DNA of 64,000 bases from a virus (IMGVR_UViG_3300009503_000019:57042-121041), one strand, 5' to 3'. Numbered from the stretch's first letter, positions 1 through 55,965 are shown. The notes: generated by a model not told the origin, from the letters alone. Made by a program: numbers and translations.

Positions 1-2
1 TA

Positions 3-299
3 GAAGAAGCAGAATTATTAAAAATTGCAGCAGAACAATTGTCTGCTCCCCCTAAACCAGAATTACCATGGTCTTATAGACATCCTGTATTAGCGAATGC
101 TTCAGCATTAGCGACTATGGGGCTATTGGCGGCATCTCCATTCGCAATTCGAAAATTTATAACAAAAGAACCTGAAGAAGCATGGGGATTGCTTGCTAGT
201 GGGCTTCTTGCAGGTGTTGTAATCGGAGGGTTACGTGGACATCTCCAATCTCGCGAATTGGAAAGATATAAAAGAATGAAAAAATTAGGAATAACATGA
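3..299 (+). CDS. K-x-A leader family membrane protein, 5'-truncated
   Basis: Frame is open from position 3 (EEAELLKIAAEQLSAPP...), so the TTG start at 39 in the track is not the real start; carries the family motif ELLKIAA and two Gly/Ala-rich hydrophobic helices. Confidence 0.8.
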   Translation, partial: EEAELLKIAAEQLSAPPKPELPWSYRHPVLANASALATMGLLAASPFAIRKFITKEPEEAWGLLASGLLAGVVIGGLRGHLQSRELERYKRMKKLGIT

Positions 300-304
300 G
301 AAAT

Positions 305-332
305 TTGCTTTTTAAATTTTTTTTGATATCAT
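305..332 (+). promoter_or_regulatory. sigma70-type promoter
   Basis: TTGCTT-16-TATCAT with extended -10 TGn, upstream of GGAGG and ATG 354. Confidence 0.5.
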
Positions 333-353
333 TATCAAAAATGGAGGTTTGCG

Positions 354-839
354 ATGTATTACTTAGAAGACTTAATCGAAGAGGCAATGCTTAAAGAAGC
401 CGCGGCACTAGAACTTCTAGAAGAAAGTGATTATCTATATAAACTTGCAGCGGCTGAAGCTAAAGCAGAAGAAGAGGAAGAATTAGCGGATGAAGAACCT
501 ACTGAAGAGGAACTTGAGGAAGAAGAGGAAGAAAAAAAGGCATTTGGAGGTCTAATGAGAGCTCTTAAATTACGATTACTCAGTAGATTAGCTCCGGATG
601 TAGAAACTTTTGCAGAAGCTTTAGGTCGACGTGCCGCTAGAAGAATGGGTCCAGAACAGTTTAGGGCATTAGGGATGAGAGAAATTGGTGAAGCTTTAGG
701 CAGACCTGCGAGAACGATAGGAAGAGAATCCTGGTGGTCTAGATACGGTGCTCCTATAGGAATTGGACTAGGTGGTGTTGGAGCGGGATTAGGTGCAGCA
801 GCTCTTATAGATTTATTATCAAAACCACGTGGATTATAA
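354..839 (+). CDS. K-x-A leader family protein (putative internal head protein)
   Basis: Leader MYYLEDLIEEAMLKEAAALELLEESDYLYKLA, poly-Glu tract, Arg-rich middle, C-terminal GIGLGGVGAGLGAAAL followed by KPRG. Confidence 0.85.
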   Translation: MYYLEDLIEEAMLKEAAALELLEESDYLYKLAAAEAKAEEEEELADEEPTEEELEEEEEEKKAFGGLMRALKLRLLSRLAPDVETFAEALGRRAARRMGPEQFRALGMREIGEALGRPARTIGRESWWSRYGAPIGIGLGGVGAGLGAAALIDLLSKPRGL

Positions 840-859
840 TATTGATAATTCATTTAAAG

Positions 860-888
860 TTGACAAAAGATTTTTTTTATATTAAAAT
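860..888 (+). promoter_or_regulatory. sigma70-type promoter
   Basis: TTGACA-17-TAAAAT upstream of AAGGAGG and ATG 920. Confidence 0.65.
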
Positions 889-919
889 TGACAACAATAA
901 AATTTAAGGAGGTTAAAAA

Positions 920-1753
920 ATGGCCGGAATAGATGAGCTTATAAGGACAATTTTATCCGAAGGTGATGCTGAACTTCAGAAACTTGCTGAAGACTTAAAT
1001 ACAGAATTACTCGCTCAGAAAAAAAATGAAGAAAAAATTCTGAAATCTTATGAGAAGCAGGGACAAGCATTTGCAAGAGGATTTATCAATGAACTTCGTA
1101 AAAGAGGATTTGGTAAACTTGCTCAGGGAATAGTTTCTCCTGCAGTTACGCCTGAATCAAATGTTGAAAAACAACCTGAGCCTGCCGCTCCAACAGTGAA
1201 TGAACCTACGGGTGAAGCTCCAGAAGATGTTGGAGAAGCAATAGAAACAATGATTGCAGCACCAGAAGCTGCATCGGATGTTGCGGGAGAGAATGTAACT
1301 GCAATAGAAGGACAGATGGAAACAACTCCTGGTGGAGAAACTCAACCAGTCGATGAGGCTGCTCTTGATGCATTAAATACTCTTATTCAAGGTGCTGTAT
1401 CACAAAGTCCAGAAGCCGCATCTGCTGTTGCATCTACATCGCCATCTGCAGAACAACAGGCGCAGTCTCGAACTTCTAGCATAGAAGCTGCTCTTAGCGA
1501 TCTAGCTTCTCAACTTGAAGTTACTTCTCAAGCCACTACACCGGAAGAAGTTATAGACCAAGCAATAGGAGAAGGAGAATCTGCACCTTCTTCAGAAGCT
1601 GCACCAGCCACACCAACCGGAGGATTAATAATGGATCCTACAACTGGATTATTGGTTAACCCTGCTACTGGCGAAGCTTATGATCCACTAACTGGAATGC
1701 CTGTAGAAGCATCATTCTATGATCCTTGGTTGTACCCATTTTATGAATATTAA
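920..1753 (+). CDS. Acidic Ala/Pro/Glu-rich head-associated protein (scaffold/core candidate)
   Basis: Strong RBS; LQKLAE and FGKLAQ motifs, long acidic low-complexity region, three [DN]PxTG repeats near the C-terminus; lies upstream of the capsid gene. Confidence 0.6.
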   Translation: MAGIDELIRTILSEGDAELQKLAEDLNTELLAQKKNEEKILKSYEKQGQAFARGFINELRKRGFGKLAQGIVSPAVTPESNVEKQPEPAAPTVNEPTGEAPEDVGEAIETMIAAPEAASDVAGENVTAIEGQMETTPGGETQPVDEAALDALNTLIQGAVSQSPEAASAVASTSPSAEQQAQSRTSSIEAALSDLASQLEVTSQATTPEEVIDQAIGEGESAPSSEAAPATPTGGLIMDPTTGLLVNPATGEAYDPLTGMPVEASFYDPWLYPFYEY

Positions 1754-1774
1754 TATTAAAAATGGAGGCTAGCC

Positions 1775-2020
1775 ATGTATAGAGACGAAGCACTTTTTGA
1801 GGATCCGCTGGTAAAAATAGCGGAAAAGGAATTAAAATTTCCTACAATAACAGAATTTGAAAAAATCGCCGCTGGATATCGCTTGAAGTTAAATGCTCAT
1901 GATCTTAAAACAGCACAGAAAATTGCTTCTATGATAAAATTCTTTTCAAAACATCCAAAAGTTGCTACCGTAGTTCGCGATGCGGCAACTATTGGTTTGA
2001 TTAAGTCTAGAAAAAAATAA
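1775..2020 (+). CDS. Small K-x-A motif protein
   Basis: GGAGG RBS; LVKIAE, FEKIAA, KTAQKIAS motifs. Confidence 0.75.
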   Translation: MYRDEALFEDPLVKIAEKELKFPTITEFEKIAAGYRLKLNAHDLKTAQKIASMIKFFSKHPKVATVVRDAATIGLIKSRKK

Positions 2021-2038
2021 TTTATAAGGAGGTTTAAA

Positions 2039-2389
2039 ATGATGTACTACGACGACATAAACGCTCTTTTAGAAGAGGCAATGATAAAAGAAGCAGCTGC
2101 TGAAGAGCTGCTTGCTGAAAGTGAAGAGCTTTATAAATTGGCTCAACTTGGAGAACTTTTAGGGATTCCTGCTGCAGAAGTTTTATCTCGTGCAAGACAA
2201 GAGACTGTTCCAATTACGCAACTTGTAGGATATGAAACAAGACTTACTCCTAGTGTAACACAAAGAATGAGAGCAGCTTTAGCAAGATTAATAAGAGCTA
2301 AGGCGTTCTTACCTACTGCAGTCGGTCTAGGAGCTCTCGGACTTGGTGCTGGAGCAGGATATTTAGCAGCTCGTCCACGTAAGAGATAA
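2039..2389 (+). CDS. K-x-A leader family protein
   Basis: Leader ...LLEEAMIKEAAAEELLAESEELYKLA; C-terminal KAFLPTAVGLGALGLGAGAGYLAARPRKR. Confidence 0.85.
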   Translation: MMYYDDINALLEEAMIKEAAAEELLAESEELYKLAQLGELLGIPAAEVLSRARQETVPITQLVGYETRLTPSVTQRMRAALARLIRAKAFLPTAVGLGALGLGAGAGYLAARPRKR

Positions 2390-2398
2390 AAATAATTA

Positions 2399-2806
2399 AT
2401 GCATTCTTCTATCTTCTACACTAGAGCGTTGATGAAAAGCGCAGCAGCGGAAAAACTTCATATTGAAAGTATATTGCTTTATAAATTGGCTGGAGAACTT
2501 TATCGCGAAGAAACAGAAGCATTATTAAAATCAATAGGAATTAATCCAGAAACTGTTGTATATCATCCTCCTCTAGGCGAACTTTATAGACAAGAAGTTG
2601 CCCCTGTAATTCAAGCACGTCCACAAGAAATATTATCTGCCGAACAAGAGATAGCTGAACTTCCGAAAACTATCGAAACTGCTCAACAGGCAGGTAAACT
2701 TAGAAGATTAATTAAATCCAAAGCATTCTTACCGGCGGCAGTTGGTCTCGGAGCTTTAGGACTTGGTTTAGGTGGGAGCTACTTATTATCCCATAGGAGA
2801 TATTAA
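2399..2806 (+). CDS. K-x-A leader family protein
   Basis: ALMKSAAAEKLHIESILLYKLA; C-terminal KAFLPAAVGLGALGLGLGGSYLL is a near duplicate of 2039..2389. Confidence 0.85.
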   Translation: MHSSIFYTRALMKSAAAEKLHIESILLYKLAGELYREETEALLKSIGINPETVVYHPPLGELYRQEVAPVIQARPQEILSAEQEIAELPKTIETAQQAGKLRRLIKSKAFLPAAVGLGALGLGLGGSYLLSHRRY

Positions 2807-3417
2807 TGTATTATTCTAATTTCAATACTGATATTAATTCTTTAAAAGAATCTCTTATTCTTGATGAGCTTCAAAAGGAATTGATAAAAGAAGCACAATG
2901 GGAATGGTTAAAACAGTTAGGACGTCGTGTTTCAGGCGGTTTTGCTCGATATTTTAGAGGAGCGTCGCCTGCAATTAGAACATCCGCAGAGGAAGCTGCA
3001 CGACAAAGAGAATTATATGAACATTTCATAAGAGGTCTTCCTGGAGCAGAAGCAACTCGTAAAGGACGGATAGGACGTGCTTTTGAAAAAGCAAAAGGAT
3101 TACTACGACGAAAACAAAAAGTTCCAGAAGCTCCGGCAGCAAAAGGACCAGGTGAACGTTATTGGGGAGAGGTTGCACCTGTGATTCAACCACGTCCTGC
3201 GGAGAGAATTGAAGAAGCATTTGAAACTGCATTAGCTAGAGAGACTGCAACTCAGCCTACTGCAACAGAAGTGGCTCAAACTGTGACTCAAACTGCTCCA
3301 GTAGCAGAAACTACTCAAGGTCGAAGATGGATTGGTCCAGCAATTGTTGGTGGTGGATTGGCAGCAGGTGGATTATTAGGATATGGTTTAAGTAGAAGAA
3401 GGAGAGAAGAAGAATGA
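2806..3417 (+). CDS. K-x-A leader family protein
   Basis: MYY start, ELIKEAQ, Arg-rich body, EVAPVIQxRP shared with 2399..2806, C-terminal GxxG helix followed by RRRR. Confidence 0.85.
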   Translation: MYYSNFNTDINSLKESLILDELQKELIKEAQWEWLKQLGRRVSGGFARYFRGASPAIRTSAEEAARQRELYEHFIRGLPGAEATRKGRIGRAFEKAKGLLRRKQKVPEAPAAKGPGERYWGEVAPVIQPRPAERIEEAFETALARETATQPTATEVAQTVTQTAPVAETTQGRRWIGPAIVGGGLAAGGLLGYGLSRRRREEE

Positions 3418-3689
3418 TGCCTTATAGAGATTTAATTTTTGAGGCAATGTTAAAAGAAGCGGCAGCATACGAACTTCTGAGAGAAAGTAATTATTTGTAT
3501 AAACTCGCAGGTGGATTCTGGGCTAGAGCTGGCGAATACTTATCAAAAGTTCCAGAATACTGGCAGAAATTCAGAACTTCTAAATATTTCTGGCCTACTG
3601 TTGCAGGTGTTGGGGGATTAACCGTTGGTGGACTAGGTGGTGCAGTGTATGGACTCAGTAGACCCAGGAAACGATATATTGAAGAATAA
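3414..3689 (+). CDS. K-x-A leader family protein
   Basis: EAMLKEAAAYELLRESNYLYKLA; C-terminal Gly-rich helix followed by RPRKR. Confidence 0.85.
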   Translation: MMPYRDLIFEAMLKEAAAYELLRESNYLYKLAGGFWARAGEYLSKVPEYWQKFRTSKYFWPTVAGVGGLTVGGLGGAVYGLSRPRKRYIEE

Positions 3690-3708
3690 AATTAAGGAGG
3701 TTTAAAAA

Positions 3709-4086
3709 ATGTACTACGATGAGTTTGATCTTTTGATAGAATTAGAGAAAGAAGCAGCTTTAGAAAAAATAGCACAAGGTAAACTTAGATCAGTTTTACG
3801 CAAAATTCCATTGCTTGGTAGATTAGTAAAAGCCCCGCCTCGTCCTTTAACCAGAACAGAAAGATTAGCTGCAAGATTGGGGGCATTTGCAACAAGACAT
3901 CCATATCTTTCTTTAGGAATTCCAGCAGCTGGATTAGGCCTTGGTGTAGCAGGTGGATATCTTCTTGGTAGCAGAATGGGAGGTATTGGATTAGCAGCGG
4001 GTCAAGAACCTCTTACAACTGAATTAGCAGCTGATCAGGAACCTCTTACAATAGAGGATTTGGGATATTATCTCGGTGAGATTTAA
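3709..4086 (+). CDS. K-x-A leader family protein
   Basis: MYYDEFDLLIELEKEAALEKIAQ; basic body; Gly-rich hydrophobic helix. Confidence 0.85.
   Translation: MYYDEFDLLIELEKEAALEKIAQGKLRSVLRKIPLLGRLVKAPPRPLTRTERLAARLGAFATRHPYLSLGIPAAGLGLGVAGGYLLGSRMGGIGLAAGQEPLTTELAADQEPLTIEDLGYYLGEI
3991..4056 (+). repeat. Two imperfect 33-bp tandem units inside CDS
   Basis: ttagcagcgggtcaagaacctcttacaactgaa / ttagcagctgatcaggaacctcttacaatagag encoding LAAGQEPLTTE / LAADQEPLTIE. Confidence 0.85.
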
Positions 4087-4547
4087 TGATAGTTCCTAAG
4101 AGAATAAATAAATATTCTCATATCGCTCTTCTCAAAAAAATTGCACAAGCAGCGGAGACTGCAACAATAACAACAGAAAAAGCATTGAAGAAACCTACAC
4201 CTCAAATATCACATCCTAAAATTTCGCAGCAAAAACCATCTGCTCAGAAGAAATTTGAAAAGATGGGTTCATTCGAGAATATTGCTATTAAATATGCTAA
4301 TTTCTTGAATAAAGTTGGTTCTTCTATATTACCCACATTAAATATCAATATTGACAATGAAATGAAAAAAGAAGCGATTAAATGGTGGCCCTGGATGAAA
4401 CGATTGGGATTACTTGGAGCAGGATATTATCTTGGATATAGATCCGCAAAGAGCAAATATGGTCCGCAGCCCCCACCAGAAATGGCGAATCCCCTTGAAA
4501 GTGGTTATTTTCTTACACCTGAAATGGAATATGGAGGTATGAAATGA
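4086..4547 (+). CDS. K-x-A motif protein with C-terminal Gly-rich segment
   Basis: KKIAQ, EKMGS, IKYAN, NKVGS, KKEAI motifs; RLGLLGAGYYLGY. Confidence 0.75.
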   Translation: MIVPKRINKYSHIALLKKIAQAAETATITTEKALKKPTPQISHPKISQQKPSAQKKFEKMGSFENIAIKYANFLNKVGSSILPTLNINIDNEMKKEAIKWWPWMKRLGLLGAGYYLGYRSAKSKYGPQPPPEMANPLESGYFLTPEMEYGGMK

Positions 4548-4876
4548 CAGGACCAGAAAAAATAAGAACTTTATTTAAAGTAGCTTCACAAGTGATAATT
4601 AAACTTGCAAATGAGAATAAACAATTGAAAGCTAAATTAGATTATTATGAGAAAAGGGCTAAAGCGGAGAAAATAGTGGATAAATTGATTCGTGCTGGGC
4701 ATCTTTCAGAATTTCAAAAAGAAGCAAAGATAAATGAATTGATGAAAGATGATCTCAAAGCATGGGAAAAAGCAGCTTCTTTAGTATCGACAATGACTTC
4801 GTTAGGAGAAACCGTATCTCCAGTTCAATCAAATGATGCAGAAAATGAACTCATTAAAGCTTTATTGAGTTCGTAA
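4544..4876 (+). CDS. Coiled-coil head assembly protein (scaffold candidate)
   Basis: ATGA coupling; FKVAS and IKLAN motifs, heptad-like helix; directly upstream of decoration and capsid genes. Confidence 0.55.
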   Translation: MTGPEKIRTLFKVASQVIIKLANENKQLKAKLDYYEKRAKAEKIVDKLIRAGHLSEFQKEAKINELMKDDLKAWEKAASLVSTMTSLGETVSPVQSNDAENELIKALLSS

Positions 4877-4897
4877 AAAAAAGAAGGAGGTTAAAAT

Positions 4898-5314
4898 ATG
4901 GCGCTGACAGAACTAAAACTGAGACTTTTAAAAGCAGCAATAGGTGTTACCGAAGAAAAGGTGAGTTTAAGTACAGCATTTAATGAAGGTATGGCTCTGG
5001 TATATGATGCAACTGCCGGAGCCTGGAAAGCAGGTAATGCAACTGATGGAAAGGTTCCACTCAGAGTAGTCTATTTTGGCTATGCATCAGATCGACCGGA
5101 TGTTATGCAACTCGGGCAGTGTAAAACAATTGCCGCTCCATGCGTGATAACCGTTAGTGTAGACAACGTTATAACTGCAACTGGTAGAATTCCAACTGCA
5201 GGAAGTGGAATTATCATAACTGGTGGTAAATATGCAGCTGTGAGTGGTACTGAAGTTCCATGTGGAATGTGCCTCGGCGTGAAAGGCGATGAATACGAGA
5301 TTGAACTCTATTAA
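4898..5314 (+). CDS. Putative capsid decoration/cement protein
   Basis: 138 aa, Gly/Ala/Val/Thr beta-rich, immediately before the major capsid gene, strong RBS. Confidence 0.5.
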   Translation: MALTELKLRLLKAAIGVTEEKVSLSTAFNEGMALVYDATAGAWKAGNATDGKVPLRVVYFGYASDRPDVMQLGQCKTIAAPCVITVSVDNVITATGRIPTAGSGIIITGGKYAAVSGTEVPCGMCLGVKGDEYEIELY

Positions 5315-5326
5315 GGAGGTGAAACA

Positions 5327-6298
5327 ATGTACGGAAATACAATGAGATTATTCTTAAATAAATTAGACACAGGTTTATCAAAAGAGGCACAAGGAGCCCT
5401 TGCAACAGTAATAAGAAGAAAAGTTCGTGAAAGAGGTATATCTCCAAGAGTTATTCCTTTTGAAACAATAAGTCCAGGAGATGTGAGAATTCAGAGAGAT
5501 CTTGATAGAGATATTATCTATTTTGTTGGTGAAAAAGAAGCTGATTCTTATGCAATGGTTCTTACTCTTGAAGGTAAACCCGGTATAATTGAGCCCAGAG
5601 GTACAAGATTTAGGGTTGATTTCTATCAGTTTGCAACTCCGAAAGTCAAAAAGCATGAAATCAATCTTCTTTCCTATACATATTCATTTGAAAAATGGTT
5701 AGAAGAAAATGTTGTATATGATATTGAAGAAGCTTACGATACCAAATTCTTAACACTTGCTTTGAGATCGGCTGAAACGACAAATCAGATTGTTCAAACT
5801 ACAAGTGCAAAATTTACACTTAATGATTTAATTGATCTTCAAAAAGTATTAACTCAAACAAAGAAGGCTTCTGATGCTAATATTGTAGTTATGAATAAAA
5901 CTACATTCCTTGAGTTCTTATCACAGGGTACAACAGTATTCGGTGATGTTCTGCAGAAGGAAATTGTAATCAATGGATACAAATATCAAACTCTACTTGA
6001 TACTGCATTTGTCGTAACTGAAAATAATGTTGTCGTTCCTCCAGGAATAGTTTATGCATTTGCAAAACCTCAGTATCTTGGTGTAGTTCCAGTTCTTCAT
6101 GATATAAAATTTTTCATCAAGAAAGAAGGACCAGAAGTTGAATGGAATACATGGTCAATACTCGGAATGAACATTGCTAATGCTTATGGGGTTGCGGTTT
6201 TAATTTATGGCTCTAAAGGTTGGTCTGTTAAAAATGGTAAAATCACATATACAGTAGACACTGTTGATTACACCGAACCACCATATCCTGAGAAGTAA
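5327..6298 (+). CDS. Major capsid protein (HK97 fold, probable)
   Basis: 323 aa, AAGGAGGTG RBS, sits after scaffold/decoration and before neck genes, followed by a strong terminator; IRRKVRE..SPRVIP N-terminal pattern. Confidence 0.75.
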   Translation: MYGNTMRLFLNKLDTGLSKEAQGALATVIRRKVRERGISPRVIPFETISPGDVRIQRDLDRDIIYFVGEKEADSYAMVLTLEGKPGIIEPRGTRFRVDFYQFATPKVKKHEINLLSYTYSFEKWLEENVVYDIEEAYDTKFLTLALRSAETTNQIVQTTSAKFTLNDLIDLQKVLTQTKKASDANIVVMNKTTFLEFLSQGTTVFGDVLQKEIVINGYKYQTLLDTAFVVTENNVVVPPGIVYAFAKPQYLGVVPVLHDIKFFIKKEGPEVEWNTWSILGMNIANAYGVAVLIYGSKGWSVKNGKITYTVDTVDYTEPPYPEK

Positions 6299-6321
6299 AT
6301 TGTTGTTCTTTTGTATAATTG

Positions 6322-6349
6322 AAGGAGGGGTAAATCCCCTCCTTTTTTT
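6322..6349 (+). terminator. Rho-independent terminator
   Basis: AAGGAGGGG-TAAAT-CCCCTCCTT hairpin followed by a T run, just after the capsid stop. Confidence 0.85.
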
Positions 6350-6376
6350 CTTTTTAAACAAAAATAGGAGGTAACA

Positions 6377-6745
6377 ATGGCAATAAAAATACAAAGTGCA
6401 GTAAAATATTTAATATCATTAGGGGAAATAATTTTTAATCCTGGAATAATTTATGAACTTTCAGACGAATTTTATAATAAACATAAAGATGTACTGGATA
6501 ATCTTGTTAAGAATGGGTTATTAAAAAGAATAGATATACCAGATATTCCTTCAGCATCATCTGAGACTGATGAATCATCTAAAGAGGAACCAAAAGTTGA
6601 AATAGAAACTAAAGTAGAAGAGAAAAAAGAAGAAGAATCTATACCTAAATTAGAAGTGGATGCAGAAGTTGTAGATGAAGTTGCAAATCTTTCTGTTGAG
6701 GAAGATTCTTCAAAAAGAAGAGGAAGAAGAAAAAAGGCGGATTAA
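6377..6745 (+). CDS. Hypothetical acidic protein with basic tail
   Basis: GGAGG RBS; ends KRRGRRKKAD. Confidence 0.7.
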   Translation: MAIKIQSAVKYLISLGEIIFNPGIIYELSDEFYNKHKDVLDNLVKNGLLKRIDIPDIPSASSETDESSKEEPKVEIETKVEEKKEEESIPKLEVDAEVVDEVANLSVEEDSSKRRGRRKKAD

Positions 6746-6800
6746 CATGTATAATTATTTTCTAATACAATTTTCAATATTATGAAATAAGGAGGTTAGC

Positions 6801-7070
6801 ATGTATAATTATTTTCTAGCACAAGCTTTAATTAAAGAAGCAACGGCGTTAGAGCTTTTAAGGGAAGCGCGATTATTAAAATTAGCTGCTCGTGAAAGTT
6901 CTCTAACTCCTGAAGAAAAACTTCGTCTAATAGGACGTGGTGCATTATATGGAGGCCTAGTAGGACTTCCAGTTGCAATATCTGGCATAGTAGCTAAAGA
7001 TCCAGAACTTGCAGCAATACCTATAGGAACTGCAATTTTAGGTTCTATTGTATCAAGATCACTATTTTGA
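6801..7070 (+). CDS. K-x-A leader family membrane protein
   Basis: ALIKEATALELLREARLLKLAA leader plus two Gly-rich hydrophobic helices. Confidence 0.85.
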   Translation: MYNYFLAQALIKEATALELLREARLLKLAARESSLTPEEKLRLIGRGALYGGLVGLPVAISGIVAKDPELAAIPIGTAILGSIVSRSLF

Positions 7071-45955: not shown

Positions 45956-47500
45956 TTAAGGTGAAATTATAGTCAATGATTCAAGTTTAAAGACTGTAAC
46001 CATTGAATACAATTTATTTTCTATTTTATCTGGTAATTCTAAAGTAGATTCCCCTTCTATATAATATTTTTTTCCATCTAATGTTTCTATTTCTGCATTA
46101 AATTGTTCGAATGGAAAATATACGGTTACATTTCTAAAATTTGTATTTATAATAGTCATTATATCATCAGCTTCTACAATGCCACCTGGCGGAATTGAAT
46201 CTAGATAATCAGAAATTAATGTTTTTAAAGTATTTATATTGATTTTACCTTTAATTTTAATAGTTAATTTCACTTTTGCTACTTGTACTAACCTGACTTT
46301 CATATCCATATTAACTAATGAATTCTCATCAACATAAGACTGAATTTGTGTAGCAGAATAATTTTTTAAATGAACAGTTATAGAGCTTAATCCAGTAGTA
46401 GCAGGTATCGCTATAATAAGCTTTTCATCAATAGTATTCCGTTCTTTAGGATCAGTAACAATATCATAATAATATGTTCCTTGAGAAAAAGAATATAATT
46501 CTCCGTATCCAAATCTATAAGCTCCAAATGTGCCATATCCGAAAGGCATTCCTTTAGAAAATCCTTCTACATAGTCAACATCATAAATCATTTTTCCTGA
46601 TATTATAGTTCCATCATCCTTTTCTAATTTGAAATTTGGATCATTAAAATCGATAGTTAATTCTAGGGCATAATTACCATTATATTCGAATTCAGTAACC
46701 GGGATTTCTGTAGTTCCTTTATATGAAAGTTTGCCTGTATCATAATCTAATTTATCAACATAAATATCCGCAGAATTTGCATATACGGATCTAACAATAA
46801 CTTCATCTTTGAAAGAGACTGGAATAACATTTTTGCAACTAAATGCATTTTTAATTCGTGATACGATAGCAGGTTTTGTAATAAATTCTCTTGTATTTAA
46901 AGCATCTATGATTTGTTGATAAAATTCTTCATTAGTTACTTTTTTTGTGCCTTGAGAAAATGGATCATTGGATATTTCAACATAAGGATAAGGGAAATTT
47001 CTTATTTCTACTATACTATCTGCAGGAATATTATACTGATCCCCTTCTTCAAATGCTTCTAGTATTATCGGGACATAATAGAATTTTTTATTTTCATCAT
47101 AATAACTGCTCATTTCTTCTTTGGAAATTGATTGCGATTCTATTGGATAAAAAGATAATCCAGTATTAGAAACAAATTCATTCAAATATGATATATATAT
47201 CGATATTGGTTCTGCAAAATAAATTCTTACCAATCCTCTTGCTTTTGTAGAAGCTTGACGAGTAACAAAAAAATTTGATGCGTATTTATCCATTAACTCT
47301 TCAGGCATTGTGGAATAGTTAGATAAGAATGACATTTCTACACTTTGATTAAACATGTTGAGATAATGAGAAATCAAATATGCCGATGCACTTACAAATA
47401 AATCATAATAAGGAGTTCCGGGTCTCAAATCTAAGGAAGGAAACTTCTCTTTTAATAAAGTAACAATGACTTTTTCTATTTCTTCTACAGGTATAATCAT
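45956..47500 (-). CDS. Baseplate J-like wedge protein
   Basis: FPSLDLRPGTPYYDL, ASNFFVTRQ..TKARGLVRIYF, EAFEEGDQYNI; ATG 47500. Confidence 0.75.
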   Translation of the reverse strand: MIIPVEEIEKVIVTLLKEKFPSLDLRPGTPYYDLFVSASAYLISHYLNMFNQSVEMSFLSNYSTMPEELMDKYASNFFVTRQASTKARGLVRIYFAEPISIYISYLNEFVSNTGLSFYPIESQSISKEEMSSYYDENKKFYYVPIILEAFEEGDQYNIPADSIVEIRNFPYPYVEISNDPFSQGTKKVTNEEFYQQIIDALNTREFITKPAIVSRIKNAFSCKNVIPVSFKDEVIVRSVYANSADIYVDKLDYDTGKLSYKGTTEIPVTEFEYNGNYALELTIDFNDPNFKLEKDDGTIISGKMIYDVDYVEGFSKGMPFGYGTFGAYRFGYGELYSFSQGTYYYDIVTDPKERNTIDEKLIIAIPATTGLSSITVHLKNYSATQIQSYVDENSLVNMDMKVRLVQVAKVKLTIKIKGKININTLKTLISDYLDSIPPGGIVEADDIMTIINTNFRNVTVYFPFEQFNAEIETLDGKKYYIEGESTLELPDKIENKLYSMVTVFKLESLTIISP

Positions 47501-47584: not shown

Positions 47585-48364
47585 TTATTTTTTCTTCAAT
47601 TGATTTTTTAGCTTCTTCAACTCTTCTAGATTTTTAGGATCATCCGCAATCTTAACTCCATTTGGAATTGGGATTTTCCTCCACTTTATTGCAAAATAAA
47701 CTTCTTTAGATGGAGGATTTTGGATAGCAACTGTTCTGCCATTAGGATCAGAAAAACTAATTCTCTGTTTTTCTGGAATTTCTACTTTAATTATATGATG
47801 ATTCATTGTAGATAAATAGAAACGAGTTCTCACTTCGTTTGGAAGATTAAAATGATACTTCTCTTTCAAGGTTTTTATCATTGATTCTGATACCGGTTTA
47901 TCATCGGGTAATTTGAATGTGGGTTGAATTATGATGATATCTCCATAACTGGCCAATTTCGTAATATTTTTTGTGAGACATTCTTCACAAACGGGGACAG
48001 TGATCTCCATACCATTAAATAGATGATTTGTATATTCTTTCGTTTCCATGATGTAGATTTTTGTCAAATTTCCGGTTTTGTGATTGGATAATTCCGCCTT
48101 TGTCTTGACTATTGCCCATTTATTTCCGCATTTTTCGCATTTGAAATATCGAGGCATTTCTTTTCTGCAGGTGGGGCATATATATTCAACTACACCTGCA
48201 GAAAGAACAGCTCCACTCAGTTTTACCTTTTCTCCGGTTAAACCGGAGAAAAGGATTAATTCTAAATCGTCCCCAGAAAATTCTTTCTGGAGACTAATTT
48301 TTGTTTCCTGGTCCCCATAGGACCAGTACCTTCCACATTCTTTACAATGATATACTTTTGTCAT
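47585..48364 (-). CDS. Double Zn-ribbon hypothetical protein
   Basis: CKEC...CPTC and CEKC...CEEC; start moved to ATG 48364 (AAGGAGGT RBS). Confidence 0.7.
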   Translation of the reverse strand: MTKVYHCKECGRYWSYGDQETKISLQKEFSGDDLELILFSGLTGEKVKLSGAVLSAGVVEYICPTCRKEMPRYFKCEKCGNKWAIVKTKAELSNHKTGNLTKIYIMETKEYTNHLFNGMEITVPVCEECLTKNITKLASYGDIIIIQPTFKLPDDKPVSESMIKTLKEKYHFNLPNEVRTRFYLSTMNHHIIKVEIPEKQRISFSDPNGRTVAIQNPPSKEVYFAIKWRKIPIPNGVKIADDPKNLEELKKLKNQLKKK

Positions 48365-48447
48365 TTTTACCTCCTTTTTTACTTTTTTTAAAAAAATCCT
48401 TATTCCTATCACAACCTAAATTATTTATAACAGATTTTTTCAAAGAT

Positions 48448-48476
48448 TTGACTTTAGATTTATTAAATTATATAAT
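48448..48476 (+). promoter_or_regulatory. sigma70-type promoter
   Basis: TTGACT-17-TATAAT just before ATG 48483. Confidence 0.8.
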
Positions 48477-48482
48477 TTTCTT

Positions 48483-48833
48483 ATGACATATTTAAAACAT
48501 GCTCAATATTTACCATATTATCCTTATCAACCCGCTCCTCCTTCAACACCACCATTGACAGCTCAAGATTTGTTACATGATTTAATAGCAGGTGGATTAT
48601 TAAGTGCAGGAGCAATTGGGGCATTATCTTTTTTTCAAAGACGAGCTCTTCAAGGAATTCCTTATGTTAAAGGTCCAGAAATAGAACGATTAGCTAGGAG
48701 AGCAGCTCTTATAGAAAAATTATATGGCCCAGCGTTATTATTAGTATTATTGCCACCGGCATTTGATATTGCATATAGAATATTAAATAGAAAGAATATA
48801 AATCAACCTATACAAGGAGGATTTATGATATGA
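48483..48833 (+). CDS. K-x-A motif membrane protein
   Basis: MTYLKHAQ start; two hydrophobic helices flanked by Arg. Confidence 0.75.
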   Translation: MTYLKHAQYLPYYPYQPAPPSTPPLTAQDLLHDLIAGGLLSAGAIGALSFFQRRALQGIPYVKGPEIERLARRAALIEKLYGPALLLVLLPPAFDIAYRILNRKNINQPIQGGFMI

Positions 48834-49882
48834 AAATAGATTTTCTTGATGATTATGATAAGGAAATATTAAAGAAAATAGCATCTTCTGAAAAAATTCC
48901 TGATATAGTGTATCAAGCTACGCCTAAAAATTATAGGAATCTCCCACCTGAAAGTTATGGATTAATTATTGTTGCTTCTGATGATAAAATCCATAAAAAA
49001 TTTCCTTGTGCAGATGGAGCTTCTACATGGTTATCTATGCAGTATTTTGTCAGAACTCGACAAAATTTACATCCTGAAGCACAAAAAATTGCTGCTTCTA
49101 TGCTTAAAAAGAATTGTAAAAAATATGATATTAAGCCCCATCCTATTATTGAAAAACTAGCTCAAGATGATATTTCCTCAAATGTTTATCATGAAAAAAC
49201 TGAAACACCTCCGCTTGAAGGTGATTTTTTACTTCCTGAAAAAGGCCATCTTCCTGTAAAAGGAAGGGATGATTTACAAAAATATATAAATGCATTTGAT
49301 CAAATAACCGCACCATATTCTTCAGATGAAAAAAAGAAAATTGCATTTAATATAGTGAAACTTTCTAAAGGATATGATGTAGAAGTTCCAGATAATATAA
49401 AATCTCTTGCAAAATCCCATGCTGAGGAAACTTTAAAAGAAACAATGAAACCTACGGAAATTAAGACCGCAATGAATAAATTTCTTGCACATAAACTTGA
49501 CTTATTACCTCGAGATAGAGTAGACGAAGCAAAAAAATTATTTAAGAAAGCAAGTATTCTTAAAATAAAAGTTCCTCCAGATATAAAAGCATATGCAAAA
49601 AGAGGTTTCAGTGTTCTTTCTAATGAAGGATTCGAAATCAGAGCAAGTATATTGGAAGAAAGAGGAGAGTTTGAAGCTTTACCCTTGTTAGATTATATTT
49701 ATAAAAAAGCATATGAATCCTCTTCTAATGAAGCCGAATTAGAAAAACTTGCAAGGGCATTAGAACAGTTTGATTATCGATATCGATTATTTGAATTATG
49801 GGATAGAGAAATTCCCGATCCATATTTGACATTGAGTTCGATAGAATTTCCGAAACTAGAAAAAAAAGAAGAAAAAAAATAG
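48830..49882 (+). CDS. Protein with multiple K-x-A/S motifs, probably head-associated
   Basis: LKKIASS, QKIAAS, IEKLAQ, FKKAS, YKKAY, LEKLAR. Confidence 0.65.
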   Translation: MKIDFLDDYDKEILKKIASSEKIPDIVYQATPKNYRNLPPESYGLIIVASDDKIHKKFPCADGASTWLSMQYFVRTRQNLHPEAQKIAASMLKKNCKKYDIKPHPIIEKLAQDDISSNVYHEKTETPPLEGDFLLPEKGHLPVKGRDDLQKYINAFDQITAPYSSDEKKKIAFNIVKLSKGYDVEVPDNIKSLAKSHAEETLKETMKPTEIKTAMNKFLAHKLDLLPRDRVDEAKKLFKKASILKIKVPPDIKAYAKRGFSVLSNEGFEIRASILEERGEFEALPLLDYIYKKAYESSSNEAELEKLARALEQFDYRYRLFELWDREIPDPYLTLSSIEFPKLEKKEEKK

Positions 49883-50044
49883 TTATTTCTTTTTATTATC
49901 ATAATAATATAAATCATAACTATTATTTACATTATTGTTGATAAAATCAGTTATTGTTCCATCGAAGTTATTTTGATAATGATTCTTTTCACATCTATTA
50001 TTTTTTTTAAGTTTACTTAGACAGTAAATACATTTTTTGGACAT
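49883..50044 (-). CDS. 53-aa Zn-finger-like protein (not in ORF track)
   Basis: MSKKCIYCLSKLKKNNRCEKNHY...; AAAAGGAGGT RBS. Confidence 0.65.
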   Translation of the reverse strand: MSKKCIYCLSKLKKNNRCEKNHYQNNFDGTITDFINNNVNNSYDLYYYDNKKK

Positions 50045-52428: not shown

Positions 52429-54186
52429 ATGCCATGTGATATTTCAATATTTTTAGCGATATTTTTAGATGAACTTGCAGAGATAGTAAAAACTCTTACA
52501 GATATTGCAAGATATATGACTGATTTCATGAAGAAACCAGGAGATATTGTCAAAAATGTTGCCGAGGATACTAAAGAAACTACCCTAAATGAACTGTTGA
52601 AAATAATTTCAGATACTGTAGCAGGAACAATTGCCACATTATCTGAATATGTAGAGAATGAAGTTAAGAATTTGTATCAAAAATATGTTGGAAAATATTT
52701 AGATGAGTACATGGCATGGATACAACTTGGACTCATGGGTATAGATATGATTCCTATTATGATTGCTTATACTGTTACAATTATTCAAGGGTTATTAAAT
52801 AAAGAAATTGAATATTTAGATAGAATAATTAAAGATTTAAACACTATTATCAATGCATTACAGAATATAAAAACTCCGACTAAAGCACATGATGAATTTA
52901 TCAAGAGAACAGCAGAAATGGTAATTGAATTATTAGGTAGTGCCAGTAGTGATATAATGGATGCAAAAGTTCTTGCAGATTCCTGTGAAACTTATGAAGA
53001 ATTATTAAGAAAATTAGAATCTGCTCGTAGACGTCTTAGAGCATCTATTTCTTTATTAGATTTAAAAAGATTTGGATATTATGTTGATTCCTTTGAAGTA
53101 GTAAATGGAATAAAAGATCCTACGGGAAGATTTAAGGAAACAATGAAAAATTTTTGGGAAAATGCTTTAAAAGCTCATTTAAAACAAGAATTGGATATTT
53201 ATAAAAATTTTGGTGCTAAAATAGTAAATGCAGTTGAAGATATTACAGTTACATTCGGTAGAGATTATTTTCCGAATCATATGAAACTTATTGGGCAGCT
53301 CAGAATATATAGTATGCTACGAATTATTGCACTATATCAAATAAAATATGTTGATTGTAAATTCGAAAAGGTAAGATTAAATTTGAAACAAGATGATATA
53401 CTTATGAAGGCTATCGAACAATTAGCTGACGTTACAGATGCTCCATATAAATATTGTTATATATTTCCAGCAGTATCAGCAGAAGTTACAGCAGTATTAG
53501 AATTATTAAGAGATCCTCGTTCAGAAATAACTCAGGATTTAAAAGCACAAATACAAAAAACTAATCTTGAACCTTATATCTATTCTGATGGCTATACTCG
53601 TGTAACGGACCAATTAAGAAGGTTACCGGTAATAGCAAAAGCTTTCAAATCGATAGATAGAAGCGTACGAGATTTAACCTCTATCCGTAGAGTAGTCCAA
53701 TACCAATTGAATTGGGCAACTAGTTTGGCTTTGGATTCATCTCGTCTTGCATCATTATCTAACGAACAATTGCTTCAAATAGAACAATTATTATCAAAAC
53801 TTGGGGTATCTCCAGCACAAATGCAATCATTTTTGGCATCCGAAGGAATGAACACTACAATGCAAACAATAGGTTATTCTATGTATGCGGTAAATACTTT
53901 ACTAGATTGTTTAAAAGTATCTCCGAAAGCACTTGTAGATAAAGTTGAGCAAAAATTAAGACCCAAAATTATGCAAGCTAAAACATTCAAAGATTCCCCA
54001 CTTAATTCTATGCAAGCTACTAAGAAATCACTTAAAGATGCATATAATGATTTAAAGAAAGCTTTAGAAGATGCAAAGAAATGGGCTAAAGAAACTTTTC
54101 CTGATAAAGCTGCAGGTATTACTCAGGCGGCACAAGCAGCAACTCCGCCAGACTCATTTGCAAAATATGCTTTTCCAGGTGAATAG
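52429..54186 (+). CDS. Large helical hypothetical protein
   Basis: 585 aa ORF; exact start uncertain (no clear RBS). Confidence 0.7.
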   Translation: MPCDISIFLAIFLDELAEIVKTLTDIARYMTDFMKKPGDIVKNVAEDTKETTLNELLKIISDTVAGTIATLSEYVENEVKNLYQKYVGKYLDEYMAWIQLGLMGIDMIPIMIAYTVTIIQGLLNKEIEYLDRIIKDLNTIINALQNIKTPTKAHDEFIKRTAEMVIELLGSASSDIMDAKVLADSCETYEELLRKLESARRRLRASISLLDLKRFGYYVDSFEVVNGIKDPTGRFKETMKNFWENALKAHLKQELDIYKNFGAKIVNAVEDITVTFGRDYFPNHMKLIGQLRIYSMLRIIALYQIKYVDCKFEKVRLNLKQDDILMKAIEQLADVTDAPYKYCYIFPAVSAEVTAVLELLRDPRSEITQDLKAQIQKTNLEPYIYSDGYTRVTDQLRRLPVIAKAFKSIDRSVRDLTSIRRVVQYQLNWATSLALDSSRLASLSNEQLLQIEQLLSKLGVSPAQMQSFLASEGMNTTMQTIGYSMYAVNTLLDCLKVSPKALVDKVEQKLRPKIMQAKTFKDSPLNSMQATKKSLKDAYNDLKKALEDAKKWAKETFPDKAAGITQAAQAATPPDSFAKYAFPGE

Positions 54187-54941: not shown

Positions 54942-55340
54942 TTAAACTTGGAAATTTTCTTGCACAGAATAAGCTTCTATTTCGTAAGGGATATTATAAT
55001 AGGCTTCATAGAGATTGAATCTTGTTTCTTTTTTGAAAAAGAAATTTATGAACCATGCCCAGTAGTATTTTATTCCGAATTTTAATAATCCATCGTTAGT
55101 CTGTTGTCTCAAATGAGTAAATTCATGAAGAAATAATCTTTTTGTAAGTATTCTGGATGAAATAATATATGGTTTTATAGTAATTGCAGTGAAATCCATT
55201 TTTGCAAGTGCAATCCATGCAATAATTGCTCTACATAATCCTGCCTCTTTAATTAATTCCCCAAATGAACATATTTTATAATTTTCCCAATCATCAATTG
55301 ACTTAGGTTTACATACTACATAAAAAAATCTTTTACTCAT
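54942..55340 (-). CDS. HExxH (DUF4157-like) metallopeptidase domain protein
   Basis: FLHEFTHLRQ...YYNIPYEIEAY. Confidence 0.65.
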   Translation of the reverse strand: MSKRFFYVVCKPKSIDDWENYKICSFGELIKEAGLCRAIIAWIALAKMDFTAITIKPYIISSRILTKRLFLHEFTHLRQQTNDGLLKFGIKYYWAWFINFFFKKETRFNLYEAYYNIPYEIEAYSVQENFQV

Positions 55341-55545
55341 TTTTCAGTCTCTTCAATAATTGTTGCCTTAACATCGGTAAATGCCCAATTCTTAACAATT
55401 GATGCACGACAATTTTATATGCTTCTTCATCTGAAATGTTTTTGAATGTTTTTTTTAGTCGCATCAATGTTTCAGCAACTTCTAGTTTTTCGGCCGGAGT
55501 TAATTGAATCTGGTTTAAATCTATTTCTATTTCTTTATCATTCAT
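55333..55545 (-). CDS. Hypothetical protein
   Basis: 70 aa preceded by TTGATT-17-TATTAT (55581-55553). Confidence 0.65.
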   Translation of the reverse strand: MNDKEIEIDLNQIQLTPAEKLEVAETLMRLKKTFKNISDEEAYKIVVHQLLRIGHLPMLRQQLLKRLKNE

Positions 55546-55587
55546 AGATAAAATAATACAAAAAATTTAATAAAAAATCAAATAGTT

Positions 55588-55965
55588 TCAAATAGCTAGT
55601 GAAAATGTTTTTGATCGGCCTGCTTCTGAAATAATATTTATTTTAATTGTAGCTTGATTTTCATTAAAGGTTATTGATACTAATTCTAAAGAATATAATC
55701 TTTCATCATCTGTCAAATCAAAATTCATACTCTGATCTCTTTTTATTGCTTCCTCTATTACCTTTAAGGACGATGTGAATAAATTCTTTAATTCTTCTTC
55801 AGCATTCACATTATATTGCAATGTTTCATTTATAATTTCTGTATTAATAATCCTATAAATCACTTCCTGAGCAAGTTTTTCTATTCCTTTAATTGTTTTA
55901 TTTAGCATTTGTAATTGAATTTTCCCAGTCGCAGGATCTACATATATGAACTGTAAACTATTCAT
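55588..55965 (-). CDS. gp25-like baseplate wedge protein (putative)
   Basis: IKGIEKLAQEVI...DERLYSLELVSI...INIISEAG pattern and size. Confidence 0.6.
   Translation of the reverse strand: MNSLQFIYVDPATGKIQLQMLNKTIKGIEKLAQEVIYRIINTEIINETLQYNVNAEEELKNLFTSSLKVIEEAIKRDQSMNFDLTDDERLYSLELVSITFNENQATIKINIISEAGRSKTFSLAI

Follow-up and report, generated by a model that had tools for sequence, protein, structure and literature searches.

Small paralogous proteins with a common K-x-A leader around the capsid gene of a hot-spring phage: putative precursors of internal head proteins

The genome of an uncultured 121-kb hot-spring phage contains eight to nine related small genes placed around its capsid gene, and their products begin with a common leader. 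The locus has been characterized through in silico analysis of the window, i.e. the whole analysed stretch of 64,000 nucleotides, of the adjacent upstream region and of related phage genomes.

Leader family and paralog architecture

All eight open reading frames of the original prediction (starting at window positions 3, 354, 2039, 2399, 2806, 3414, 3709 and 6801) are present at these coordinates on the plus strand; the leader ascribed to all of them is strong in six and degenerate in two (2806 and 3709). A leader HMM detected six strong copies in the genome, at genome position 56987 and at window positions 354, 2039, 2399, 3414 and 6801 (E 1e-11 to 5e-18), and four further copies in the relative L003, while the next match in all six frames of the genome had an E-value above 2. 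The genes at 2806 and 3709 have kept the architecture, but their degenerate leaders were missed by the HMM, and the count is therefore six strong and two weak copies. The consensus of the strong copies, M-Y-x..EAM[LI]KEAAAxELLxE[SA]..L[YL]K[LI]A, comprises about 30 residues with two Lys-x-Ala sites. A Shine-Dalgarno sequence lies ahead of most MYY starts, which places the leader at the true N-terminus. The family is rare, with only 10 clusters among 1.84 billion representative proteins.

Across 16 distinct leaders, those of relatives included, the invariant positions are M1, K14, A16, A18, L21, E24, L28 and K30, a set that takes in the lysine of both K-x-A sites and the alanine of the first; the alanine of the second site is conserved at 90% or more. 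Judged from these leaders, K-x-A is their most conserved feature. Of the leader residues that are identical, about half are encoded by different synonymous codons, which points to old duplicates under selection at the protein level. At the level of sequence, the existence of a leader family under purifying selection is shown. The proposal that the leader behaves like a shuffled cassette was not borne out, as the differing codons and the common Gly-rich hydrophobic segments indicate diverged paralogs and not a DNA cassette.

Nor are the bodies behind the leader as unrelated as they had been thought to look. They share one or two Gly-rich hydrophobic segments, mostly C-terminal and in most cases followed by a basic tail, and some of them also share internal blocks; on this comparison, the paralogs are old, diverged duplicates of one architecture. 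The leaders are mostly acidic (pI about 4.1-5.0), and most bodies are basic (pI about 10-12). A G-x-G-x-x-G-x-G pattern is visible in the paralogs, with a hydropathy of 1.3-1.9. For the proteins at 354, 2039 and 2806, Pfam listed no Gly-zipper family at E up to 0.1, PHROGs gave no match at E up to 0.01, and the phiKZ internal head protein family (Pfam PF12699) was unmatched. At E up to 0.1, Pfam returned no family at all for 2039 or 2806, and for 354 only matches far below the cut-off to unrelated families. Among the paralogs and the other head-module proteins scanned, no Pfam match reached the family cut-off, and phiKZ_IP was absent from the weak ones. The predicted structure of a paralog is of low confidence (pLDDT 55).

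Table 1. Genes of the paralog array and its surroundings (window coordinates unless stated otherwise)
Feature	Position	Strand	Characteristics
Paralog 1, C-terminal part	1..299	+	Gene cut by the window edge; full gene genome 56987-57340, 117 aa, whose true start precedes the window by 55 nt; protein begins MEDLILQALIKEAAAEKLLEEAELLKIAAE; leader with K-x-A (residues 11 and 26), followed by ELPWSYRHPVL and a pair of hydrophobic segments
Paralog 2, 161 aa	354..839	+	Leader, poly-Glu stretch closed by a third K-x-A (KKA, residues 61-63), basic body with Gly-zipper helix; predicted charge -22 for the propeptide and +8 for the remainder
Acidic Ala/Glu/Thr/Pro-rich head-module protein, 277 aa	920..1753	+	Without leader; contains LQKLAE and GKLAQ; ortholog in L003
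81-aa protein	1775..2020	+	5 K-x-A vs 1.5 expected; C-terminal FFSKHP..hydrophobic..SRKK
Paralog 3, 116 aa	2039..2389	+	Leader K-x-A at 17 and 33; basic body ending AVGLGALGLGAGAGYLAARPRKR
Paralog 4, 135 aa	2399..2806	+	Leader variant ALMKSAAAEKL..LYKLAG; C-terminal module close to that of paralog 3
Paralog 5, 203 aa	2806..3417	+	Degenerate leader, single K-x-A at residue 28; internal block in common with paralog 4; Gly-zipper and RRRREEE tail
Paralog 6, 91 aa	3414..3689	+	Best leader match, E 4.5e-18; predicted mature part 59 aa, pI 9.9
Paralog 7, 125 aa	3709..4086	+	Degenerate leader MYYDEFDLLIELEKEAALEKIAQ, RHPYL motif, Gly-zipper, acidic tail
153-aa protein	4086..4547	+	N-terminal LLKKIAQ; C-terminal Gly-rich hydrophobic helix and basic tail; conserved out to L004, a relative with 63% MCP; possibly an older member of the paralog architecture
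Scaffold-like helical protein, 110 aa	4544..4876	+	5 K-x-A vs 1.8 expected; weak similarity to a head-maturation-protease PHROG, over the C-terminal part of the latter
Small protein, candidate decoration protein	4898..5314	+	Immediately 5' of the capsid gene; assigned purely by synteny: a gene of ~140-190 aa at this position in 7/7 relatives inspected, in phage G that of the capsid decoration protein gp26
Major capsid protein, HK97 fold family	5327..6298	+	Related to phage G gp27; GLSKEA at residues 16-21
122-aa protein	6377..6745	+	Downstream of the capsid gene; acidic middle, basic KRRGRRKK tail; conserved in L003, L004 and L007
Paralog 8, 89 aa	6801..7070	+	Leader K-x-A at 12 and 27; two Gly-rich hydrophobic segments; ortholog L003 10112-10435

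The K-x-A motif and the upstream protease

The abundance of K-x-A relative to residue composition had been set beforehand as a refuting test of the proposed cleavage system, and its outcome did not refute the proposal. In the head module 51 motifs were counted against 23.9 expected from per-protein shuffles, whereas the rest of the genome contains 140 against 149.8 expected; the longer form hydrophobic-x-K-x-A occurs 39 times in the 3,176 aa of the head module and 63 times in 35,000 aa elsewhere. Within the paralog bodies the motif is missing (0 vs 3.9 expected, P = 0.015), a depletion that is modestly significant in this phage and not significant in L003. Four neighbours had also been described as repetitive in K-x-[AGS]. 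Individual enrichment in K-x-A was found for the proteins at 1775 and 4544, but the loosening to K-x-[GS] has to be abandoned, K-x-S and K-x-G reaching 0.81 and 0.73 of expectation in the relatives.

The same question was put to the wider family with 34 non-redundant distant IMG/VR loci carrying the protease, in which 400 a-x-b pairs were compared between head-module and control ORFs. K-x-A is the top pair of all 400 in the head-module ORFs (1255 vs 621, z 25) and flat in the control ORFs of the same loci (382 vs 365), and it exceeds 1.5-fold in 32 of the 34. Enrichment is limited to the one-residue spacing between K and A (2.0-fold) and does not show for A-x-K, R-x-A, K-x-S or K-x-G in these loci. 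The family logo around the motif reads [ED][ED]-[LMF]-E-K-[TVIL]-A-[SEA], with Ser as the most frequent residue after the alanine (3.3-fold). Conservation of K-x-A extends to the N-terminal region of most capsid proteins (G.EK.A; here GLSKEA) and to that of the proteases, with K27 and A29 kept at 90% or more.

A prohead protease had been expected outside the window, and its gene was located directly upstream of the array (genome 55787-56983, 398 aa), ending 4 nt before paralog 1. The protein has no match in Pfam and a weak one in PHROGs. A fold search with its model (pLDDT 82) places T4 gp21 and six herpes proteases at the top of the list (Z 7-10, residues 39-226): residues 39-212 align with T4 gp21 (5JBL) with a Z of 10.2 and an rmsd of 3.3 over 133 residues, and residues 47-226 align with herpes assemblins with a Z of 7-9. 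Among 40 protease homologs, H100 and S154 never vary and H180 hardly does, and the protease contains an inserted C-x-x-C...C-x-H cluster that is likewise invariant. According to the model, the upstream protease has the gp21/assemblin fold with a conserved candidate catalytic His followed by Ser.

The originally proposed cleavage at K-x-A is supported by the comparison, in which the motif appears to behave like a cleavage motif of the head protease, but the support does not extend to K-x-[GS] sites. It is statistical in kind, and a conserved K-x-A could alternatively be a binding or helix feature. The following observations count against the cleavage reading. Between K and A, the first leader site and the capsid protein of this clade have Glu, whereas the wider family prefers T/V/I/L; and the capsid protein of phage G has R-V-A at the equivalent position, with a deposited chain of nearly full length. 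Two findings from cultured relatives speak in its favour: phage G gp20, gp21 and gp22 have short N-terminal leaders ending in K-x-A, and in Salmonella phage Arash the proteins encoded between the protease and the capsid gene were detected in virions (PMC10585845). The coverage of about 100% given for K-x-A-rich proteins of Arash, however, at face value argues against wholesale removal of fragments.

Relationship to known maturation systems

The internal proteins IPI, IPII, IPIII and Alt of phage T4 carry a capsid targeting sequence that is removed by the prohead protease gp21 (PMC3012670, PMC9026906). The hot-spring phage resembles T4 in (i) several small basic proteins with a common N-terminal leader ending in the presumed motif of the phage's own protease; (ii) a protease of gp21 fold (Z 10.2); (iii) genes located in the head module. 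The differences relate to the leader (~30 residues with two sites here, ~10 residues with one site in T4), the motif (K-x-A with a presumed P1 Ala and a leader end K-[LI]-A, in contrast to L/I-x-E) and the cargo, which here consists of a single paralog family bearing Gly-rich hydrophobic helices and in T4 of soluble proteins.

In phiKZ and SPN3US, head propeptides are cut by gp175 and gp245 at (S/A/G)-x-E or A-x-E, and the ejection proteins gp53 and gp54 are paralogous (PMC5694885, PMC7411985, PMC10052503). Tandem paralogs, common N-terminal propeptides with several copies of a three-residue motif, a self-cleaving protease and a site also in the capsid protein (the propeptides, the self-cleavage and the capsid site being predicted here) are features common to both systems. 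However, there is no sequence relationship, the specificity differs, and the products in the present phage, as predicted by computation, would be much smaller. The array is probably a system of a known kind, like the T4 internal proteins and the phiKZ/SPN3US propeptides, but with another specificity, K-x-A, that is apparently undescribed.

The maturation and release sites of herpesvirus assemblin have the form (V/L/I)-x-Ala | Ser. Its likeness to the phage protease concerns the fold (Z 7-9), the invariant His and Ser, the site (Ala, then most often Ser) and the short terminal peptide that would be severed from an internal capsid protein. In contrast to assemblin, the lysine two residues before the alanine and the preceding hydrophobic-Glu pair belong to this phage family only, the severed peptide would be N-terminal, and the phage protease contains the C-x-x-C...C-x-H insertion. 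In adenoviruses, the precursors pVI, pVII and pX/mu undergo maturation by the adenoviral protease within the capsid. The likeness here is a functional analogy only, i.e. capsid-internal precursors trimmed at a short motif; virus lineage, protease fold and motif are all unrelated. The adenovirus products, one peptide that acts on membranes and small basic ones associated with DNA, serve as a working analogy for the mature products of the array.

Proposed role of the array and alternative explanations

The array probably reflects an expansion, specific to this clade, of small internal head proteins that are synthesized as precursors and lose their leaders at K-x-A to the prohead protease (rough probability 0.6). 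Each precursor would carry a mostly acidic, helical pro-leader of ~30 residues with two Lys-x-Ala sites and co-assemble into the prohead, where the phage's own serine protease, encoded directly upstream, would cut after the Ala of K-x-A; this cut, suggested by the K-x-A-[S/E/A] logo, would parallel the Ala-Ser cut of herpes assemblin. The cut would free basic products of 53-173 aa (pI about 10-12) with one or two Gly-rich hydrophobic helices and, in most, an Arg/Lys tail, and the mature peptides would remain associated with the DNA and possibly exit together with it. Conservation of the leader beyond the two sites may reflect targeting, or the need to keep a greasy basic body soluble and inactive.

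That conservation (EAM before the first site, AAxELLxE between the sites) goes beyond what protease subsites need, and it leaves room for a tentative second explanation, in which, as originally proposed, the leader is mainly a capsid-targeting tag, its helix docking on the capsid protein, scaffold or protease, and cleavage at K-x-A only releases the cargo. In the herpes scaffold, the C-terminal tail attaches to the capsid protein, and assemblin cuts this tail off at Ala-Ser; by analogy with it and with the T4 capsid targeting sequence, the leader could act likewise, and the strongly basic capsid N-arm (IRRKVRER) just after GLSKEA could pair with the acidic leader. However, the extra conservation is equally explicable by the solubility of the hydrophobic, basic body. 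The tags of T4 and marine T4-like phages are borne by unrelated cargo, whereas every leader carrier here is a paralog of one architecture, so that portability of the leader is hypothetical.

It is unlikely that the paralogs are assembly-only, scaffold- or chaperone-like proteins that are degraded or expelled and do not occur in the mature virion. Their genes do stand among scaffold-like genes, the acidic helical N-termini resemble scaffolding domains, and the neighbours at 1775 and 4544 carry K-x-A along their whole length, as in chopped-up proteins. In the paralogs, however, the motif is limited to the leader, a pattern that fits survival of the body; the basic, hydrophobic bodies differ from known scaffolds, and for a scaffold a set of 8-9 paralogs would be out of the ordinary.

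Proteins of the infected cell's membrane (holin-like, exclusion or assembly-site) with an N-terminal cytoplasmic amphipathic helix, K-x-A being a by-product of Ala/Lys/Glu-rich helices and the protease unrelated, would account for the one or two potentially membrane-spanning segments of each paralog, the positive tail of most and the lack of a family match placing them in the virion, but are quite improbable, because the genes of the array are intermingled on one strand with those for protease, scaffold, decoration and capsid proteins, K and A are invariant leader positions, and an enrichment specific to spacing, K-to-A direction, Ala and head modules is unlike a composition artefact.

For internal head proteins with removable leaders, a bolder form can be drawn, which is speculative and on present grounds rather doubtful. 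The head would hold an arsenal of pro-peptides; removal of the acidic two-site leader by a prohead protease with a hitherto undescribed K-x-A specificity would arm small, basic glycine-zipper peptides. Ejected together with the DNA, these peptides would become embedded in the host membrane, forming or widening an entry path. The leader would then be a portable capsid-loading tag, and the family may have arisen from a split-off and multiplied hydrophobic C-terminal tail of an ancestral long protease. An HMM built on the C-terminal tail of the relatives' long proteases has its best match in this genome, a tentative one (E 0.007), in the 81-aa protein at 1775..2020.

As a separate observation, the acidic protein at 920..1753 was likened by eye, without scoring, to acidic proteins encoded downstream of the protease in distant relatives; the block seen in common is G-x-x-F-A-x-x-F-x-x-E-L.

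Leader family and paralog bodies

All eight ORFs of the predicted paralog array are present around the capsid gene; the window edge truncates the first of them, and its true start at genome position 56987 restores a complete leader. The leader is an N-terminus of about 30 residues with two K-x-A sites, and the remainder of each protein is here called the body. A leader HMM was built from the six strong copies of this genome and four from L003, a close relative. In a six-frame scan that covered this genome as well as two related loci, this profile recovered the six and the four copies (E values of 1e-11 to 5e-18) and no further copy below E = 2. The two other ORFs, at window positions 2806 and 3709, retain the overall build, with diverged leaders. 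Most of the MYY starts are preceded by good Shine-Dalgarno sequences. Among 1.84 billion representative proteins, the whole-family profile found only 10 clusters, which belong to this phage and a few close relatives.

In 16 distinct leaders the residues M1, K14, A16, A18, L21, E24, L28 and K30 are invariant and A32 is conserved in at least 90%, which places the two K-x-A sites among the most conserved parts of the leader. For about half of the identical leader residues the codon differs from copy to copy, indicating old duplicates kept alike by selection at the protein level. The original prediction of a shuffled DNA cassette is thus at odds with the synonymous sites, and their divergence also rules out recent gene conversion as the cause of the likeness and any nucleic-acid-level reason for the conservation. 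A signal peptide is ruled out as well, since the leader is acidic rather than hydrophobic. The complex prediction for the capsid protein with leader residues 1-40 reached a score of 0.01 against a mark of 0.32, which speaks neither for nor against binding.

The bodies, previously regarded as unrelated, turned out to share several features: (i) one or two Gly-rich hydrophobic segments in every member, e.g. AVGLGALGLGAGAGYLAA; (ii) an Arg/Lys tail in most paralogs (RPRKR, RRRREEE); (iii) internal blocks, namely EVAPVIQxRP, common to the proteins at window 2399 and 2806, and RHP[YV]L, common to four members. Division of each paralog at its last N-terminal K-x-A gave mostly acidic leaders (pI about 4.1-5.0), and most remainders were basic (pI about 10-12); the leader at window 354 includes a poly-Glu stretch ending in a third site, KKA, and therefore has a net charge as low as -22. 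The bodies contain no K-x-A, against 3.9 expected (P = 0.015), a modest depletion, and the same count in the L003 bodies (0 versus 1.0 expected) is not significant. The AlphaFold2 model of the protein at window 2039 is all helical, with a pLDDT of 55, and comparison of the paralogs with Pfam, PHROGs and the ESM Atlas (look-alike search) gave nothing usable. The G+C content of the array (window 1-4000) is 40%, compared with 25-31% for most of the window; the abundance of Ala, Gly, Glu and Arg in the paralogs presumably accounts for the difference.

The adjoining prohead protease

The prohead protease that had been expected outside the window is predicted directly upstream of the array, where 4 nt separate the end of its gene from the first paralog. 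An AlphaFold2 model, built with a 40-homolog alignment, has a pLDDT of 82. Residues 39-212 of the model match the T4 prohead protease gp21 with a Z score of 10.2 (rmsd 3.3 over 133 residues), and residues 47-226 match the herpesvirus assemblins with Z scores of 7-9, whereas unrelated entries reach 6 at most. H100 and S154 are invariant in the protease and 39 homologs. The same alignment shows an invariant cluster, C164-x-x-C167...C178-x-H180, which is inserted in the gp21/assemblin fold and is possibly a zinc site. Such a Cys/His cluster is not known from T4 gp21 or the herpesvirus proteases.

More than 150 homologs of the protease were collected, mostly from phage-sized contigs of 100-200 kb, and a Pfam domain was found in none of them. 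The clade comprises more than 400 IMG/VR hits together with cultured phages: Salmonella phage Arash (gp222, 39% identity), Vibrio phages D69, D148 and D181, Bacillus phage G (gp19), Rhodococcus phage E3 (gp77, annotated as prohead protease) and the cluster C mycobacteriophages. In the literature searched, no paper deals with the specificity of the clade; in the papers on Arash (PMC10585845) and phage G the protease is annotated or found in virions, and its cleavage is not analysed.

K-x-A as a candidate cleavage motif and the proposed maturation

The occurrence of K-x-A was analysed in 80 protease loci of IMG/VR, nearly all with a homologous capsid gene 3-5 kb downstream, from which 34 non-redundant loci were taken, with no close relative of this phage among them. 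The head-module ORFs, from 4 kb upstream of the protease to the capsid gene, were compared with the other ORFs of the same loci. In the head modules K-x-A tops all 400 a-x-b pairs (1255 versus 621 expected, z = 25), whereas in the control ORFs it is flat (382 versus 365 expected). After removal of the protease, K-to-A is enriched at the one-residue spacing only (974 versus 482); other spacings give 0.7-1.0 of expectation, and the related patterns A-x-K, R-x-A, K-x-S and K-x-G give 0.85, 0.91, 0.81 and 0.73, respectively. The excess is more than 1.5-fold in 32 of the 34 loci. In the present genome K-x-A likewise exceeds composition, as had been anticipated, and does so in the head module only.

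The motif logo reads [ED][ED]-[LMF]-E-K-[TVIL]-A-[S/E/A], with Ser after Ala enriched 3.3-fold. Most capsid proteins carry the motif near the N-terminus, as G.EK[IAT]A around residues 22-27 (GLSKEA here, GLVKEA in Arash), and so do the proteases, in which K27 and A29 are at least 90% conserved (LHKLAS here). The phage G protease, gp19, contains eight K-x-A, and gp20, gp21 and gp22 of phage G start with short leaders ending in K-x-A. Assemblins cut after Ala and before Ser, which makes cleavage on the C-terminal side of the K-x-A alanine the natural reading; by this analogy we infer that the protease cuts at this putative scissile bond. The pattern parallels that of A-x-E in SPN3US/phiKZ, which litters the propeptides, is also present in the capsid protein and marks the self-cleavage of the protease (PMC10052503). 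The Arash proteome lists 116 "virion" proteins at very high coverage, without cleavage analysis, and for Gp223-Gp225.1, encoded between the protease and the capsid gene, it shows only detection (PMC10585845).

In the proposed maturation the paralog precursors would enter the prohead, where the protease would remove the acidic leader at the second K-x-A site and halve it at the first, leaving small basic peptides with Gly-rich hydrophobic helices. In T4, the prohead protease of the gp21 fold acts inside the assembled prohead; since proteases of this fold act there, the substrates must be inside if the K-x-A sites are used. The mature peptides might serve to neutralise the charge of the DNA or to line the shell, or they might be inserted into the host membrane during ejection. 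Conservation beyond both sites (EAM.., AAxELLxE) suggests a role for the leader besides that of presenting a cut site: it may serve to load the protein into the prohead, or to keep the greasy basic body both soluble and harmless until inside.

T4 and phiKZ-like phages already exemplify the general principle of a leader, a protease and internal proteins, and the logic of the array is that of the T4 internal proteins, which have a capsid targeting sequence, and of the phiKZ/SPN3US propeptides. However, the proposed motif is K-x-A rather than the L/I-x-E or A-x-E of those systems, the leader is long and has two sites, and the cargo is hydrophobic, the clade of this phage having multiplied small hydrophobic, basic proteins behind the leader. 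If K-x-A is the cut site, it would be the substrate code of a large prohead protease clade that is so far uncharacterised, and propeptides and mature N-termini would become predictable across the phages that carry these proteases. The array could be informative on how greasy, DNA-binding or membrane-active peptides stay harmless until inside the capsid, and the leader could supply a thermostable loading tag in capsid engineering.

By eye, phage G gp22 (L086:6866-7612) resembles a cell-wall amidase whose C-terminus is LysM-like. It starts with MYKIA, five residues ending in K-x-A, and so may be a head-packaged, protease-trimmed lysin.

Distribution of the array and neighbouring genes

With a capsid protein of 86% identity, L003 has a syntenic set of six leader genes that differs in gene number and in the bodies. 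Such an array is absent from the intermediate relatives L013 and L007 and the distant L038 and L078, which encode K-x-A-rich acidic proteins or proteins with an N-terminal K-x-A followed by Gly-rich hydrophobic segments. Judged from these sequences, the array is a local invention.

Many distant proteases are 500-680 aa long (e.g. L038:10001-11683, L078:10001-11734 and other IMG/VR loci). Their C-terminal tail consists of K-x-A, a hydrophobic helix, a basic loop, F-V-x-K-H-P-x-L and a hydrophobic helix. The motif [KR]HPx[LIVMF] occurs in 15 of 34 protease tails; the other ORFs have 17 such motifs in 336,000 aa. The short protease described here has no such tail, and adjoining small genes carry KHP or RHP motifs. 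Resemblance to the tail is seen in the protein at window 1775 (FFSKHP...) and in the paralogs with RHPYL, but only at E 0.007-0.6; the top three matches of the tail HMM in this genome and L003 are small head-module proteins (E 0.007, 0.01 and 0.12), and the reverse HMM gave E 0.3-0.6. At such values, descent of the bodies from a split-off C-terminal tail of a long protease is a lead, not a result.

Features of the head module and its surroundings (single contig of 121,041 bp, with the window as its last 64 kb; window position = genome position - 57,041)
Feature	Genome position	Window position	Strand	Remarks
Pyruvoyl-dependent arginine decarboxylase	46036-46506 (L001:6036-6506)			Pfam PF01862, E 6.5e-34
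663-aa ORF	47911-49902			
Large terminase	52587-54155		+	PHROG 675, E 1e-73
166-aa protein	55290-55790 (L001:15290-15790)			directly 5' of protease
Prohead protease (predicted), 398 aa	55787-56983 (L001:15787-16983)		+	two unassigned genes separate it from terminase
Major capsid protein		5327-6298	+	PHROG 2522, E 5e-12; 3' of array
122-aa protein		6377-6745		directly 3' of capsid gene

The head-module genes, including the array, all lie on the + strand. The capsid protein profile matches phage G gp27 (PDB 6WKK) with E 3e-24; scans for close relatives of this protein gave two metagenome loci only, and none in IMG/VR or the GTDB genomes. The 663-aa ORF was considered as the portal and not confirmed (BLASTP against Arash gp218, E 0.16; no match in PHROGs). 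The arginine decarboxylase gene, about 10.5 kb upstream of the window, is a metabolic gene unusual in a phage. The 122-aa protein, with an acidic middle and a KRRGRRKK tail, is kept at the same position in the relatives L003, L004 and L007. The 166-aa protein has one hydrophobic segment, and, judged by eye, the protein is conserved at this position in the distant relatives L038 (8829-9311), L078 (9426-10001) and L007 (9462-9890), which would give the head module a second conserved protein of membrane-like character.
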